Shown here one piece after another: positions 21,901-26,910 of a stretch of 41,260 bases of DNA; the first letter of the stretch is position 1; every line of letters begins with the position of its first letter. The position numbers and the translations under genes were made by a program. Source of the DNA: an uncultured Gammaproteobacteria bacterium (GTDB lineage: Bacteria; Patescibacteriota; Microgenomatia; CAYGWK01); the NCBI GenBank assembly GCA_964487495.1, contig CAZAPL010000008.1:1-41260 (forward strand), read 5' to 3'. The notes under the pieces were generated by a model. The model saw only the letters and a program-made list of their open reading frames with translations, did no database searches and was not told the origin of the DNA.

Positions 21901-23555
21901 TGAGAAGGTGGAGAGTATTGAATAAATTGGTTATGGCAAAAGAGGGCTTTGACGTTTCAGAAATTATTAGGATTTTATTAAAAAATCGAGAGATAAATAC
22001 CGATAAGGAAATTGAAGAATTTCTAAAGCCCCCTAGTCCTTATAGTTTAAAACCAGAACATCTAAAAATTAGTTTAGTTGATCTTGAAAAAGCGGTAAAA
22101 AGAATTAAAAAAGCAGTGAAGAATAATGAAAAAATTATTATATATGGAGATTATGATACTGATGGTGTTTGTGCTACGGCGATAATTTGGGAGGTTCTTT
22201 ATCAAATGGGAGCAAAAGTAATGCCTTTTATTCCTAAAAGAGAAGAAGGCTATGGAATGAAGGTTGAAAGGATTGATCAATTTGCCGATGAAGGGGTAAG
22301 TCTTATAATTACGGTAGATCAAGGTATTACTGCTTATCCCCAGGTTGATCACGCCAGGAAAATGGGAATTGATGTAATTGTTACCGATCATCATCTGCCT
22401 GGGGAAAAGAAGCCAAGGGCGTTTTCAATTATTCATACCACTGCTCTTTCGGGTTCTGGTGTGTCTTGGTTTTTGGCAAAAAATTTGGGGAATCCGGATC
22501 TTGATCTTGTAACTATTGGGACAGTGGCTGATATGTTGCCTTTAACCGGGGCAAATCGAGCAATTGTTTACCATGGACTTCCAAAATTAAGAAATACTAA
22601 AAGGCTTGGTTTAAAAAAACTTTACGATAAAGCGGGAATTTCTTCAGAATCTTTAGGGACTTACGAAATAGGATTTATTATCGGGCCAAGGATAAATGCT
22701 TCAGGAAGATTGGATGATCCGATGGAATCCTTACGCCTACTTTTGACCTCAAAGGAGGAAAGAGCCTTGTCTCTTGCTCAAAAAATTGATGAACAAAATC
22801 GCAGGCGTCAAGTTTTGACAGAAGAAATGACTATCCATGCGAGAAATTTATGGTTTTCTCAAGATGGGAAAAGTAAGTTGATTTTTGTTTCTCATACTTC
22901 ATACGAAGAGGGGATTTTAGGTTTAATAGCAGGAAAGTTAGTAGAAGAATTTTATCGGCCGGCGGTGGTTATTGCCCAAGGAGAAAAGTACTCTCGGGCT
23001 TCTGCAAGATCAATTAATGGTTTTAATATTATTGAAGCAATAAGATCATGTAGCGATATTTTGGGGTCTCATGGTGGGCATGCTTTGGCGGCTGGTTTTT
23101 CGGTAGAAACGGTAAGGATTGAGGAATTAAAAACTAGACTTCTTGAAATAGCAGAAAAAAACTTAAATGAGGAAATTTTAACCCCTGTTTTAAAAATTGA
23201 TTTAGAGATGGATCTTTCTTTTGTTTCTCTTTCTCTTTTTGAGATATTGAAAAAATTAGAGCCCTTTGGTTATGGTAATCCCGAACCTCTCTTTTTAAGC
23301 CGAAATTTAATTATTTTTGATGCCCAAACTGTAGGGGATAAAAATCAACATCTTAAATTAAAAGTAGCATCTCTCCTGTCACGGACCACTTTTGAGGCTA
23401 TTGGTTTTGGCATGGGAGGCTTTTTTGATAAACTTTCTCCTGAAGAACCGGTTGATATTGTTTATAGTTTACTTTTGGAGAGATGGAATAATTCTTCCTC
23501 TCTTAAGTTAAAAATTAAAGATATAAGAAAAAGCAAAAATGGAGAAAAAGATTAA
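21900..23555 (+). CDS. recJ: ssDNA-specific exonuclease RecJ
   Basis: YGDYDTDG, ITVDQG, TDHH, GTVADM, PRINASGR, GGHALAAG. Confidence 0.96.
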   Translation: MRRWRVLNKLVMAKEGFDVSEIIRILLKNREINTDKEIEEFLKPPSPYSLKPEHLKISLVDLEKAVKRIKKAVKNNEKIIIYGDYDTDGVCATAIIWEVLYQMGAKVMPFIPKREEGYGMKVERIDQFADEGVSLIITVDQGITAYPQVDHARKMGIDVIVTDHHLPGEKKPRAFSIIHTTALSGSGVSWFLAKNLGNPDLDLVTIGTVADMLPLTGANRAIVYHGLPKLRNTKRLGLKKLYDKAGISSESLGTYEIGFIIGPRINASGRLDDPMESLRLLLTSKEERALSLAQKIDEQNRRRQVLTEEMTIHARNLWFSQDGKSKLIFVSHTSYEEGILGLIAGKLVEEFYRPAVVIAQGEKYSRASARSINGFNIIEAIRSCSDILGSHGGHALAAGFSVETVRIEELKTRLLEIAEKNLNEEILTPVLKIDLEMDLSFVSLSLFEILKKLEPFGYGNPEPLFLSRNLIIFDAQTVGDKNQHLKLKVASLLSRTTFEAIGFGMGGFFDKLSPEEPVDIVYSLLLERWNNSSSLKLKIKDIRKSKNGEKD

Positions 23556-25020
23556 TATTGATAAATTAATTGAAAAAATTAAATATTATGATCTTAAGGT
23601 TGACCTTAAAGAGGTAAGGAGGGCTTTTGAATTTGCTTCTTCTGCTTGCGGGGGGAAATTAAGACTTTCCGGAGAAACGGTTTTGGATCATTTACTTGCA
23701 GTTGCCGAGGTTTTGGTAGATTGGAAACTGGATACTACCTCGATTGTCGCAGGTATTTTACATGATGTTGTTGAAGATGGAGGCAAAAGCCTGGAAGAGA
23801 TCAAAAAAAATTTTGGAGAACAGGTGGCATTTTTAGTTGATGGGGTAACAAAGATAGGTGGTTTAAAACTCAGAGGGTCAACCAATGAAGAATTTGTTGA
23901 AAATTTAAGAAAAATGGTTGTGGTTATGGCTTCTGATTTAAGAGTAGTTTTAATTAAACTTGCTGATCGTTATCATAATATGCAGACTCTTTCCTTTTTG
24001 CCTTTGGATAAGCAAAAAAGAATTGCCAGAGAAACTTTGGAAATTTATGCTCCTCTTGCGGAAAGATTAGGGATTGGGGAAATGAAGGGGAAACTTGAGG
24101 ATTTAGCCTTTTCTTATGTTTATCCTGAAGATTTCTTGTGGGTTAAGAATTTTTCTGCCCCATTTTACCATAAAGCTCAAGAGATCGTTGAGGAGGCGAA
24201 GGAAGAAATTTTAAAAAAACTTGGAGAAGAAAAAATAAAAGCCACCGTTTCCGGCCGGGTTAAACATCTTTATTCTCTTTGGAAGAAACTTTTAAGACCA
24301 GAAATTAATAAAGATATTTCAAAAATTTTTGATCTTGTGGCATTAAGAATACTTGTTTCTTCAATAAGAGATTGTTATGCCTCCTTGGGTGTAGTTCATC
24401 AGAAATGGAAGCCAGTTCCTTTTAAGGGAGTAAGTGATTTTATCGCTCAACCAAAGCCAAATGGTTATCGTTCGATTCATACTACTGTTTTTGGTCCTCA
24501 CGGAAGGATTATTGAAATTCAAATAAGGACTTATCAAATGCATGATGAGGCAGAAAATGGAATTGCCGCCCATTGGTATTACGCTTCTTTAAAGTCAAGA
24601 GGGGTCTCTGATCAGAGACTTGAAAGCGGAAGTTTTGCTCCTGATGAAAAACTTTCTTGGGTTCGGCAATTGGTTGCTTGGCAGAAGGAAATCGTTGGTT
24701 CAAAAGAATTTTTAGAGGCGATAAAATTCGACGCTTTAGCCCATCGAATTTTTGTTTTTTCGCCAAAAGGCGATGTTTTCGATTTGCCTTTAGGGGCTAC
24801 CCCGATTGATTTTGCTTATGCAGTCCATACCAGTTTGGGTGATGAGGCAGTTGGAGCAAAGGTTAACGGGAAAATGGTTAAACTTAATTATAAATTAAAA
24901 AGTGGCGATATGGTTGAAATATTGAAAAAGGAAGGCACTAAACCCTCACGAGACTGGCTGGAGTTTGTAGTTACTACTTTGGCTAAAAGAAGGATTAGAA
25001 GATTTTTTAAGAATGTTTAA
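23539..25020 (+). CDS. rel: RelA/SpoT family (p)ppGpp synthetase/hydrolase, short form (HD-SYN-TGS)
   Basis: LHDVVED, KLADRYHNM, KPNGYRSIHT, EIQIRT, TPIDFAYAVHT. Confidence 0.93.
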   Translation: MEKKINIDKLIEKIKYYDLKVDLKEVRRAFEFASSACGGKLRLSGETVLDHLLAVAEVLVDWKLDTTSIVAGILHDVVEDGGKSLEEIKKNFGEQVAFLVDGVTKIGGLKLRGSTNEEFVENLRKMVVVMASDLRVVLIKLADRYHNMQTLSFLPLDKQKRIARETLEIYAPLAERLGIGEMKGKLEDLAFSYVYPEDFLWVKNFSAPFYHKAQEIVEEAKEEILKKLGEEKIKATVSGRVKHLYSLWKKLLRPEINKDISKIFDLVALRILVSSIRDCYASLGVVHQKWKPVPFKGVSDFIAQPKPNGYRSIHTTVFGPHGRIIEIQIRTYQMHDEAENGIAAHWYYASLKSRGVSDQRLESGSFAPDEKLSWVRQLVAWQKEIVGSKEFLEAIKFDALAHRIFVFSPKGDVFDLPLGATPIDFAYAVHTSLGDEAVGAKVNGKMVKLNYKLKSGDMVEILKKEGTKPSRDWLEFVVTTLAKRRIRRFFKNV

Positions 25021-25051
25021 ATTTTTTATAATTATTTTTCTCTTTTTTGGG

Positions 25052-25300
25052 CTATTTTTGGTGTTTCCCAAGTTTTCCTTTTTGGTTTAGAAAATTTTCC
25101 GGTGAAGTTTTTTCTCTCAGAGAATTGCCTTGATCACCAAAAATTTCTTCACCGTATTTGTTAATTATTCTTATTGCTTCTTCAGGATTTAATTTTAATA
25201 TCTCTTCCCAAGCAGCCTGTTGGGCATTTGGTAGAATGCCAAAAGTATCTAGCATTTTTTGGTATCTTCCTAAAGCTTTCCAATATTCTGATTCTTTCAT
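25052..25300 (-). CDS. Hypothetical protein, 82 aa
   Basis: ATG-initiated ORF directly downstream of the attenuator-like leader. Confidence 0.65.
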   Translation of the reverse strand: MKESEYWKALGRYQKMLDTFGILPNAQQAAWEEILKLNPEEAIRIINKYGEEIFGDQGNSLREKTSPENFLNQKGKLGKHQK

Positions 25301-25310
25301 TATTCTAATA

Positions 25311-25340
25311 AATAAAAAACCTCCCTTTTTTGGGAGGTTT
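25311..25340 (-). terminator. Intrinsic terminator within a leader (attenuator)
   Basis: AAACCTCCC-AAAAAA-GGGAGGTTT followed by TTTATTT on the - strand. Confidence 0.8.
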
Positions 25341-25363
25341 GAGAAAGTTTTAAAAACTATTTT

Positions 25364-25450
25364 CTACTGCCATTTCCCCAAACCTCCCCTCTCCTTCTTT
25401 TTGAGGATAATAGAAAGAGAGATTTGGTTTATAAAAAGGGAGTTTTTCAT
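25364..25450 (-). CDS. Putative leader peptide, 28 aa (not in the ORF track)
   Basis: MKNSLFINQISLSIILKKKERGGLGKWQ*, between promoter and terminator; contains the antiterminator segment. Confidence 0.6.
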   Translation of the reverse strand: MKNSLFINQISLSIILKKKERGGLGKWQ

Positions 25451-25462
25451 TTAATTATAAAG

Positions 25463-25491
25463 ATTTTAATTAGTCATTTTTAGATTGTCAA
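25463..25491 (-). promoter_or_regulatory. Sigma70 promoter of the attenuated unit
   Basis: TTGACA (25491-25486), 17 nt, TAAAAT (25468-25463). Confidence 0.8.
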
Positions 25492-25521
25492 GATAAAGAA
25501 AAAAATGTAGAATATTAGATA

Positions 25522-26910
25522 ATGCAAAGAGTTTTAACTAGTCAGACTAAAGAAAAAATTGGAGAAAAAGTTAGGCTTTGTGGATGGGTAAATAATCTTC
25601 GGGATCACGGAAAGATAATTTTTATAGATTTACGAGACAAAGAGGGAATTATTCAATTAGTTGGAGATGAAAAATTGAAAAATTTGAGAATTTCCGACGT
25701 TTTGGAGATTGAGGGAGTGGTCAAGAAAAGACCAAAAAATTTAATTAACCCCAAAATTTTAACCGGAGAAATAGAAGTTGAAGTTAAGAACTTTAAAATT
25801 TTGGCAAAGTCAAAGGATTTGCCTTTCGATATTCAGGGAAGTGGAAGAGAAATCAATGAGGAATTACGCCTGCGGTATCGTTATTTAGATTTAAGGCGAC
25901 TAAGAATTTTTAGGAATTTGGAAATTCGTCATAAAACTATTAAATTTATTCGTGATTGGCTAGATGCTCATGGGTTTATTGAAATTGAAACTCCAATTTT
26001 AACAAAGGCTACTCCAGAAGGGGCAAGAGACTTTTTGGTTCCTTCAAGGCTTCAGCCAGGGAAATTTTATGCCTTGCCCCAATCTCCCCAGCAGTATAAA
26101 CAACTTTTAATGGTTGCTGGGTTTGAAAGATATTATCAGATAGCGCGTTGTTTTAGGGATGAAGACCCGCGGGCTGACCGGGCTTATGGGGAGTTTACTC
26201 AACTTGATCTTGAAATGTCTTTTACAACCCAAGAAGAAATTTTGTCTTTGATTGAAGAACTTTATAAATCTTTAATTAAAAAAGTTTTTCCTCAAAAAAA
26301 GCTTACTTTTTCTCATTTTCCTAGATTAGAATATGATGAGGTTATTAAAAAATATAAGACAGATAAGCCTGATTTAAGAAAAAACAAAAATGACCCCGAC
26401 GAGTTAGCATTTTGCTTTATAGTTAATTTTCCTTTATTTGAATGGAAGGAAAAAGAAAATCGTTGGGATTCAATGCATCACCCTTTTACTGCTCCTAAAG
26501 AAGAGTTTGTTCAAGACTTACTTAATGAAAGAAATATTGGTGGAATTAAATCTTATCAACATGATTTTGTTTTAAACGGTTTTGAAATAGGAGGGGGAAG
26601 TATTAGAATTTCTGATCCGGAAATTCAAGAAAAAGTTTTTAAAATTCTCGGCCATGAATCATCAGAAATTAAGAAAAAATTTGGGCATCTTTTGGAGGCT
26701 TTTAGTTATGGCGTCCCCCCTCATGGTGGAATTGCTCCCGGAATAGACCGTTTTTTAATGATTGTTTTAAATGAGCCTAATCTTCGGGAGGTAATTGCTT
26801 TTCCAATGACCGCCTCGGGACAAACAGCAGTTATGGATGCTCCTTCTGAAGTAGACTCTTCTCAGCTTAAAGAGTTAGGAATAGAAATTGTCTTTAATAA
26901 AGACAAATGA
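25522..26910 (+). CDS. aspS: Aspartate--tRNA ligase, bacterial type without GAD insertion, probably non-discriminating
   Basis: RDHGKIIFIDLRD, TPEGARDFLVPSR, ALPQSPQ, CFRDED, PPHGGIAPGIDR. Confidence 0.95.
   Translation: MQRVLTSQTKEKIGEKVRLCGWVNNLRDHGKIIFIDLRDKEGIIQLVGDEKLKNLRISDVLEIEGVVKKRPKNLINPKILTGEIEVEVKNFKILAKSKDLPFDIQGSGREINEELRLRYRYLDLRRLRIFRNLEIRHKTIKFIRDWLDAHGFIEIETPILTKATPEGARDFLVPSRLQPGKFYALPQSPQQYKQLLMVAGFERYYQIARCFRDEDPRADRAYGEFTQLDLEMSFTTQEEILSLIEELYKSLIKKVFPQKKLTFSHFPRLEYDEVIKKYKTDKPDLRKNKNDPDELAFCFIVNFPLFEWKEKENRWDSMHHPFTAPKEEFVQDLLNERNIGGIKSYQHDFVLNGFEIGGGSIRISDPEIQEKVFKILGHESSEIKKKFGHLLEAFSYGVPPHGGIAPGIDRFLMIVLNEPNLREVIAFPMTASGQTAVMDAPSEVDSSQLKELGIEIVFNKDK

Follow-up and report, generated by a model that had tools for sequence, protein, structure and literature searches.

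A candidate leader-peptide transcription attenuator upstream of a small-protein gene in Microgenomatia, and a family of similarly built short-ORF leaders in the class

On a contig of an ultra-small hot-spring bacterium, a gene for an 82-residue protein is preceded by a promoter, a short open reading frame (ORF) and an intrinsic terminator, and the locus raises the question of whether translation of the short frame decides if the gene behind it is transcribed. The window analyzed here is the whole 41,260-nt stretch of contig CAZAPL010000008.1 (assembly GCA_964487495.1; GTDB Patescibacteriota, Microgenomatia), from a genome of 617 kb with 35.4% G+C. Regulation in the Candidate Phyla Radiation (CPR) and Patescibacteria is almost unknown; these organisms cannot be grown alone and have few transcription factors. 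We propose that the sequence in front of the 82-residue gene is probably a ribosome-mediated leader-peptide transcription attenuator through which the gene is gated, a reading suggested by alternative RNA helices, by conservation between two families of the class, and by a set of similarly organized leaders in which codon content can be compared with the gene behind.

Alternative helices and conservation of the leader

The elements of the leader follow one another on the minus strand. A sigma-70-type promoter, TTGACA-17-TAAAAT (25463..25491; boxes 25491-25486 and 25468-25463; 11 of 12 matches), precedes an ORF of 28 codons plus stop (MKNSLFINQISLSIILKKKERGGLGKWQ, 25364..25450, ATG at 25450 and TAG at 25366-25364), whose ATG stands 12 nt past the -10 box and has no Shine-Dalgarno (SD) sequence. 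A 26-nt spacer separates the stop codon from an intrinsic terminator (25311..25340, -14.6 kcal/mol) with a 9-bp stem AAACCUCCC/GGGAGGUUU, the loop AAAAAA and a U-rich tail; the hairpin can be written as AAACCTCCC-AAAAAA-GGGAGGTTT (25340-25317) with the tail TTTATTTATT. The 82-residue ORF (25052..25300) begins directly behind it with the ATG at 25300. An earlier note, made from the letters alone, had described the promoter, the 28-codon frame, the terminator and the gene start, all of which are present at the coordinates it gave in the minus-strand reading, as well as a perfect 10-nt complementarity between the end of the frame and the terminator; GGGAGGTTTG (25388-25379) is indeed the exact reverse complement of CAAACCTCCC (25341-25332), and in folds the helix grows to 15 pairs.

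A scan of 11 kb gave 31 promoter-like sites, among which this promoter scored highest. Because shuffled sequence gave 31.3 such sites, and 9.6 terminator-like sites against the six found, the scan by itself proves nothing. The hairpin of the form CCTCCC..GGGAGG plus T occurs once in the 617-kb genome, and among 45 terminator-like hairpins of that genome the window's leader is the single case that combines a promoter-proximal short ORF upstream with an ORF behind.

The 166-nt leader RNA folds with a minimum free energy (MFE) of -55.8 kcal/mol, against -32.5 +/- 3.7 kcal/mol for 200 dinucleotide shuffles, none of which did as well (z -6.33). Four segments account for the mutually exclusive helices. 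Region 1 (CCAAAUCUCUCUUU, 25414..25427) spans codons N8 to S13 of the short ORF; region 2 (GGAGAGGGGAGGUUUGGGGAA, 25374..25391) lies in its last eight sense codons and can pair with either region 1 or region 3; region 3 (UUUCUCAAACCUCCC, 25332..25346) provides both the 3' strand of the antiterminator and the 5' arm of the terminator, which it forms with region 4. In partial folds the 1:2, 2:3 and 3:4 helices reach -20.9, -24.0 (15 pairs) and -14.6 kcal/mol, respectively. When the transcript was folded as it grows, region 1 paired first with GGAGAGGGGAGGUUUGG of region 2 (-22.6 kcal/mol up to 25376), and with the addition of region 3 the MFE structure changed to the 15-pair 2:3 antiterminator, after which region 1 shifted register and UCUCUCUUUC paired with AGAAGGAGAG. 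Folding of the alternative structures, which the earlier note had proposed, thus yielded the three helices it implied, with one correction: the upstream stem TCTCTCTTTCT/AGAAGGAGAGG that it had taken for a competitor does pair but coexists with the antiterminator in the MFE structure, and the true competitor is the shifted register CCAAAUCUCUCUUU/GGAGAGGGGAGGUUUGG.

Folds of regions 1 to 4 responded to the position of a simulated ribosome. With no ribosome, the MFE structure combined 1:2 with the terminator (-39.2 kcal/mol); a 30-nt ribosome mask that put the stop codon in the A site also gave the terminator, and masks that put Ile codon 7, 10 or 15 there gave the antiterminator. We suggest the following course of events. 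Transcription would begin a few bases upstream of the leader ATG, and a ribosome would translate the 28-codon frame as RNA polymerase advances. If slowed within codons 5-16, it would cover region 1 and leave region 2 (GGGAGGUUUGGGG) free to pair with region 3, which would block the terminator and allow the gene to be transcribed. A ribosome that reaches the stop codon would instead cover the 3' half of region 2, so that 3:4 forms and transcription ends at the U tract; with no ribosome on the frame, region 1 would take region 2, region 3 would pair with region 4, and transcription would end at the same place. The attenuation layout described in the earlier note is thereby upheld, with a conserved frame, a terminator adjoining the gene, and exclusive 2:3 and 1:2 helices with region 1 inside the ORF; in such a switch read-through would depend on translation.

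The sole syntenic counterpart of the leader lies in a metagenome-assembled genome of the Microgenomates group that belongs to another family (G024), where the gene order recJ-rel-X-aspS-carboxypeptidase is the same. The two leaders are identical at 138 of 185 positions (75%). Identity is 45% at 4-fold degenerate sites of rel and 46% at those of aspS, and the gene behind the leader retains 58% at the DNA level and 45% at the protein level, so the leader is more strongly constrained than the gene that follows it. The G024 promoter keeps TTGACA-17-TAAAAT; its leader frame (MRLFINQISLFILKERGRGGLGKRP, 25 codons) departs from the window's by two in-frame indels, one of 6 nt and one of 3 nt, and has its stop codon at the aligned position; the region-1 block AACCAAATCTC is identical; and the 1:2, 2:3 and 3:4 helices reach -25.7, -28.4 and -13.8 kcal/mol. 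The pairing between frame and antiterminator, whose loss in homologous loci the earlier note had held to count against its proposal, is therefore kept in G024 along with the frame itself.

Variation among strains gives a similar picture at shorter distance. The stretch was present in three hot-spring DNA runs, with zero RNA runs among the matches, and strain contigs from the DNA runs were compared over 25040-25530. One variant (X2) has three changes, at 25376 (GGG to GGA, synonymous), 25414 (Ser13 to Pro) and 25475 (promoter spacer). A second (X3) has 19 differing sites and one deletion: within the leader ORF it shares the 25376 change and adds 25390 (Arg21 to Gly, A-U to G.U) and 25409 (AUU to AUC, synonymous); between terminator and ATG it is substituted at 25304 and lacks 1 nt at 25307, and in the promoter spacer it has a change at 25484. 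The synonymous change at 25376 turns a G.U pair of the 2:3 helix into A-U. In both variants the leader ORF is intact, having taken only substitutions (two synonymous and two nonsynonymous), the terminator is free of substitutions, and the core of the antiterminator is unchanged. X3 differs from the window by three substitutions in the transcribed leader (about 146 nt) and by 14 in the 249-nt gene, 10 of them amino-acid-changing and four synonymous, a ratio that indicates a fast-evolving protein; on these sequences the 82-residue protein appears to be evolving fast or under diversifying selection. We hold with good confidence that the leader is a real and conserved leader-peptide attenuator, as judged from the comparisons above.

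The stronger conservation of the leader, taken with the basic disordered tail of the 82-residue protein, would also suit a switch in which a ligand or a protein, such as the 82-residue protein itself, sets the balance between 2:3 and 3:4 while the short ORF is incidental. We regard this as very improbable. In-frame indels and a stop codon at the shared position point to a frame that is read, and the correspondence of codon runs with genes across the family, described below, needs translation. An Rfam scan with E up to 10 matched no riboswitch or protein-binding leader family, and nothing reached its gathering score; the best match, RF01859 (Phe_leader; 29.9 bits against 55, E 0.029), is itself a leader-peptide family and, being below the gathering score, resembles the window's leader in layout only.

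Some further observations concern the leader itself. In full-length folds its 5' end, including the leader ATG (25433-25451, minus strand), pairs with the 3' arm of the terminator and the U tract (25304-25331), so that in read-through transcripts the start codon of the leader would be masked; this helix, seen solely in equilibrium folds of the complete leader, is absent in G024, and we treat it as incidental. A 7-codon mini-ORF (MAVENSF, at 25373) with a strong SD-like sequence upstream was considered and rejected, as its ATG is absent in G024. A purine-rich stretch on another contig (G000:C17:17441-17466; L002 1501-1526) matches the leader, where region 2 and the stop codon lie, at 24 of 26 positions (E 2e-4), and a 299-nt X3 contig holds a G024-like leader fragment.

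Leaders of the same layout across the class

We defined a family by the pattern CCTCCC-N3-9-GGGAGGTTTTT and searched 401 sampled genomes for it, all from the class (in GTDB, that of the 'Microgenomates group'). The terminator motif CCTCCC-loop-GGGAGG-T5 was found in 158 of the 401, with about 247 matches, and a reversed-pattern control gave 0 in every listed genome. Elsewhere in the phylum the motif occurred in 20 of 190 sampled genomes, often as two-strand matches typical of bidirectional terminators. BLAST of the window's leader against the 401 genomes returned matches in 55, nearly always on the terminator part; searched with the whole leader, only G024 matched beyond that part, and the matched loci show a like layout in front of unrelated genes.

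A census was taken of 60 regions, each the first listed match of one of 60 genomes, widened where matches lay close together. It comprised all 73 hairpins with at least 200 nt of upstream sequence, chosen by the hairpin alone, and was compared with dinucleotide-shuffled versions of the 230 nt in front of the hairpins, 1460 in all. An ATG frame 14-38 codons long (median 26), with its end 16-44 nt (median 29) short of the hairpin, accompanied 67 of the 73 hairpins, against 19% in shuffles, and in 61 a TAnnnT box also stood 5-12 nt (median 8) before the ATG of the frame, against 6% in shuffles; the scan of CPR genomes for promoter-uORF-terminator leaders (uORF, upstream ORF) that the earlier note had proposed thus finds the layout recurring in the class. 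An SD-like sequence preceded the ATG in just one of the 67 frames. GGRGG lay upstream of 62 of the 73 hairpins, usually 10-17 nt before the stop codon, and behind 62 of the 73 an ORF encoding 40 aa or more starts within 40 nt, with the GGGAGG arm 4-13 nt before the start codon in 29 of these 62 and a second group at 18-21 nt.

Common to the members are a near-leaderless short ORF and four pairing segments that resemble CCUCC or GGGAGG. The window's terminator fits the family motif (CCTCCCAAAAAAGGGAGGTTTTTT, 25337-25314), and its frame of 28 codons, with a 26-nt gap to the hairpin and GGRGG in the last codons, has the length, spacing and composition seen in the family. Its ATG, SD-less and 12 nt from the -10 box, falls at the upper edge of the near-leaderless range, and 19 nt separate GGGAGG from the ATG of the gene. 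All of the window's values are within the family ranges, two of the spacings being on the long side. No sampled protein encoded downstream in the family is related to the window's protein (blastp, 1e-4).

The census bears on whether the promoter, short ORF and terminator could form a separate unit that makes a small RNA or small protein, with the 82-residue gene expressed without regulation, either from another start or through leak-through. On termination such a unit would yield an RNA of about 145 nt that is highly structured, and several frames of the family resemble hydrophobic mini-proteins with conserved sequence. The stem, however, is only 16 nt from the ATG of the gene, which leaves no room for a separate promoter; the ORF within 40 nt behind 62 of 73 hairpins, and the GGGAGG arm placed 4-13 nt before the start codon in 29 of those, indicate that hairpin and gene are coupled; the antiterminator is conserved; and no Rfam family matched at threshold. 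We therefore judge a separate unit improbable and continue to favor attenuation.

For 20 downstream ORFs, chosen partly for clear runs in the leader frames, we annotated the product; given this choice, the list shows that matches between codons and genes exist, not how frequent they are. Where the gene is recognizable, the codon runs appear from the annotations to correspond to it. Cysteine-rich frames precede cysteine enzymes: CC.SC stands before a cysKM-type enzyme (L020; 294.8 bits, under the curated cut-off) and CCC before two cystathionine-beta-synthase/cysK-type enzymes (L033, 447.5 bits; L069, 444.6 bits). Isoleucine-rich frames precede citramalate synthase, as IIIAII (L030; 401 bits, in an ORF cut by the end of the locus) and FVIIID (L101; 489.4 bits, above the cut-off of 450), and the Rid-family deaminase RidA, as IQIIGIIITS (L099; 163 bits, cut-off 106). 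YYY is found before tyrS (L095; 331 bits), YFWFYF before 3-deoxy-D-arabino-heptulosonate 7-phosphate synthase (L114; 275 bits, cut-off 268), KKTTKT before aspartate kinase (L115; 144 bits, truncated ORF) and NNN before an amino-acid racemase (L110; 151.8 bits). MCMMM precedes a protein with an S-adenosylmethionine (SAM) hydroxide adenosyltransferase domain (SAM_HAT_C, Pfam; L037 in G192; 33.9 bits, cut-off 25.5); a SAM-cleaving enzyme would free methionine from SAM, which would make neat starvation logic for Met-rich leaders. There was no obvious match for TTTT before a short-chain dehydrogenase/epimerase-like protein (L065), for a Leu/Ile/Phe-rich frame before a pyridoxal-phosphate decarboxylase (L012), or for many frames, chiefly Leu-rich, before singleton proteins of 50-150 aa without a family.

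If the family is real, the leader-peptide codons would be a readable label of the amino-acid shortage that switches each gene on. Hundreds of unannotated switches would then assign physiological cues to enzymes, to tRNA synthetases and above all to orphan mini-proteins of these symbionts, and classical attenuation with SD-less short ORFs would be a main regulatory device of the lineage.

Several features of individual loci stand beside these results. Attenuator cassettes occur in tandem on one strand at L100 (G191:C9:17795-21720) and also at L086, L101, L085 and L099; G191 has four cassettes in 2.7 kb, with frames of Leu/Val, Ile, Met and aromatic type, each before a different small or unfamiliar gene. 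The Met-rich frame at L100 (MMM) precedes a protein that by eye resembles the SAM-cleaving enzyme of L037 and has no NCBIfam match. An AAATTAG tandem repeat of 3.5 copies fills the spacer between ORF and terminator in two genomes of different families (L012 about 1495-1525 in G309; L014 about 1500-1525 in G006). In four genomes of one genus (L070-L073), a run-less frame of 34-35 aa, MDILSVQNLNS.CIYLH.TWMRFLR..., is conserved as a peptide before a conserved protein of more than 328 aa, and it could represent another type of sensor, for instance an arrest peptide.

Possible signals and the rel-aspS cassette

Several observations weigh against attenuation at this locus, and we set them out together. 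Equilibrium folds that include the first 24 nt never favor the terminator (mean pair probability 0.00-0.12), because the 5' segment AAAUGAAAAACUCCCUUUUU pairs with region 4; the decision of the switch would thus have to be kinetic, as it is in other attenuators. Initiation on the short frame is presumed: its ATG has no SD sequence and stands 12 nt past the -10 box, as far as the family range (5-12 nt) extends, and 15 nt past it in G024, outside that range. Region 2 begins about 22 nt ahead of the stop codon, where the family median is 13 (range to 40), so that a terminating ribosome would shield only part of it. The helix changes relative to G024 are all one-sided (U-A to U-G, G.U to A-U) with zero double compensatory changes, in a sample of one orthologous locus and two strain variants; since every difference is one-sided and keeps the pair, two sequences give no covariation proof of structure.

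The leader frame has no single-codon run, as the earlier note had remarked; its densest stretch is three Ile in seven codons, and 27 of the 67 frames in the census show no greater density. Four Ile in 27 codons are not unusual (P 0.21). Part of the peptide is forced by the RNA, with AAC CAA AUC UCU CUU UCU constituting the pyrimidine-rich region 1 (Ile/Ser/Leu) and AAA AAG AAG GAG AGG GGA GGU constituting region 2, which forces K/R/G codons. The gated protein, moreover, has no assigned function, so the logic linking codon to function cannot be checked at the window.

Within these limits, codons 5-16 (LFINQISLSIIL) comprise four Ile and three Leu, seven of 12, for which the binomial P is 0.0035 relative to genome usage (385 long ORFs; Ile 8.8%, Leu 10.8%) in a codon window picked post hoc. 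Whether Ile/Leu supply is the main signal or any slowing of translation suffices stands at about even odds. A further possibility is that the same hardware reads another signal, either as a general translation-stress sensor of the whiB7 kind or through nascent-peptide or drug-dependent arrest, as in erm or cat leaders, on the segment LFINQISL. The lack of a run, a target that is not a biosynthetic gene and the identity of LFINQISL in the window and G024 all fit such a sensor, as does the whiB7 uORF attenuator, which answers many amino-acid and tRNA defects according to uORF composition (PMC10274678). The segment is, however, encoded by region 1 and constrained as RNA (AACCAAAUCUC pairs with region 2), so that its conservation is no independent evidence for the peptide; family members with interpretable targets are amino-acid specific; and no resistance-type gene lies downstream. 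We consider a signal of this other kind unlikely and retain attenuation by a ribosome slowed in codons 5-16.

What the switch would control is a small protein of narrow distribution. AlphaFold2, with a 6-sequence alignment, predicts helices at residues 2-20, 24-35 and 39-58, a core (2-58) with a predicted local distance difference test score of about 85, and a disordered basic tail. The label of orphan given to the gene in the earlier note applies in that it belongs to no Pfam family, the scan giving only a sub-threshold SHOCT-like match (14.6 bits against 27), but it is not strict: about five small-protein clusters are found among 1.8 billion representatives, with P0002 (the X3 product, 88% identity), P0005, P0006 (the G024 protein), P0007 and P0009 as credible relatives, the last four 105-129 aa long. 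Searches for structural relatives gave no match at E <= 0.001 with Foldseek against PDB, designed helical bundles as the best matches in VIA-align wide (Z 7.4, in the range that signifies a common arrangement only), and no informative relative in the ESM Atlas (scores at most 0.86). A search of 5.8 billion protein sequences returned the query itself and P0002 only, a metagenome protein scan nothing, and a metagenome DNA-pattern search 17 matches, all by chance and inside unrelated sequence. A hidden Markov model search of the class found the gene in two of 401 genomes, G024 being the only other one here and in a 61-genome search; G024 was also the sole match in a genome contig collection, and a viral contig collection had none. 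The phmmer matches P0003, P0004 and P0008 are large repeat proteins and were not counted as relatives. P0004 and P0008, from AT-rich organisms, contain four to six repeats of NP.LR..I..KYG.D.F..DG, which is like residues 38-58 of the 82-residue protein.

Domain matches bear out the location of the gene between rel and aspS given in the earlier note. The gene is flanked by rel (23539-25020, plus strand, convergent; HD_4, RelA_SpoT and TGS domains) and aspS (25522-26910, plus strand, divergent; tRNA-synt_2). A putative divergent promoter for aspS, TTGTCA-17-TAGAAT (25485..25513, plus strand; 10 of 12 matches), has a -35 box that overlaps that of the leader promoter. The aspS ATG at 25522 is 8 nt past the -10 box of this promoter-like site, so aspS may have a leaderless mRNA; a like arrangement can be read upstream of aspS in G024 (L010, about 1225-1270), with a spacing of 7 nt.

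In G001 and G002, of the window's family, and in G309, of the family of G024 (L119-L121), aspS directly follows rel on the same strand and the cassette is missing; aspS starts 8-20 nt past the rel stop codon or, in G309, overlaps rel at its 3' end. The cassette of back-to-back promoters, leader and small gene, roughly 500 nt in all (25040-25530 in the window), is present in two of the five genomes inspected (G000 and G024), at an identical site in different families, and the adjacency of rel and aspS in the other three indicates an insertion/deletion polymorphism at one site. It may have been inherited and then lost, or moved by recombination between co-resident lineages.

The switch marks the 82-residue protein beside rel as a candidate starvation- or translation-stress-induced product. 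As a rather doubtful extension, the cassette could be a node of a class-wide ribosome-read regulon, in which near-leaderless leaders gate amino-acid enzymes, tRNA synthetases and a good number of lineage-specific mini-proteins, and would couple branched-chain or general translational starvation to a fast-evolving, basic-tailed three-helix protein, inserted along with its bidirectional promoter and acting on the stringent-response or translation machinery.

Comparison with known attenuators

For CPR, Patescibacteria and Microgenomates, a literature search of main texts, with few subscription journals among them, gave no paper that treats attenuation or leader peptides of this kind, a Patescibacteria match mentioning bacteriocin leader peptides only, and no published name for a family of CCUCCC/GGGAGG short-ORF attenuators. 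Classical leader-peptide attenuators of amino-acid operons include trpL, hisL and pheL, as well as the ilvGMEDA leader of mixed Ile/Leu/Val type. Like these, the window's element has a promoter-near short ORF, four segments with 1:2, 2:3 and 3:4 pairing, region 1 inside the ORF, the stop codon beside region 2 and a terminator directly before the gene. It differs from them in that no single-codon run is present, the target is a small unassigned protein rather than a pathway enzyme, the ORF starts without an SD sequence 12 nt past the -10 box, and the pairing segments are SD-like and anti-SD-like. The mechanism being classical, the kind of element is already known; there is no sequence homology to the classical leaders (29.9 bits against 55 for Phe_leader), and the element falls outside the Rfam leader families.

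Two mycobacterial systems come close in principle. The whiB7 leader has an Ala-enriched uORF and controls a known transcription factor (PMC10274678); it likewise places a uORF, an antiterminator and a terminator before a non-biosynthetic gene, a stress gene in that case, and its sensing is set by composition over a strict run (PMC10274678). The window's leader has no sequence relation to it and no evidence links the element to antibiotics. The 'Cys ribulon' consists of leaderless polycysteine short ORFs that act on access to the ribosome-binding site (10.1101/834739). It resembles the window's element in its unannotated sensory ORFs at or near the 5' end of a transcript, in stalled ribosomes that remodel structure downstream, and in the many independent loci that answer one amino acid (10.1101/834739). 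The window, in contrast, has a U-tract terminator, contains zero Cys codons and belongs to another phylum, and its GGGAGG arm, 19 nt from the ATG, is too far away to act as the SD sequence of the gene. The mycobacterial Cys attenuators are thus an analogue of the window's element and not the same group.

A further likeness is with the family found in its own class. The window's codon enrichment is of the weakest kind there and its region 1 carries CCAAAUCUC instead of ACCUCC, whereas it shares with the other members the CCTCCC-loop-GGGAGG-U terminator, a short ORF of 14-38 codons whose last codons carry the G-rich region 2, the -10 box 5-12 nt before the ATG and a gene that starts within 40 nt.

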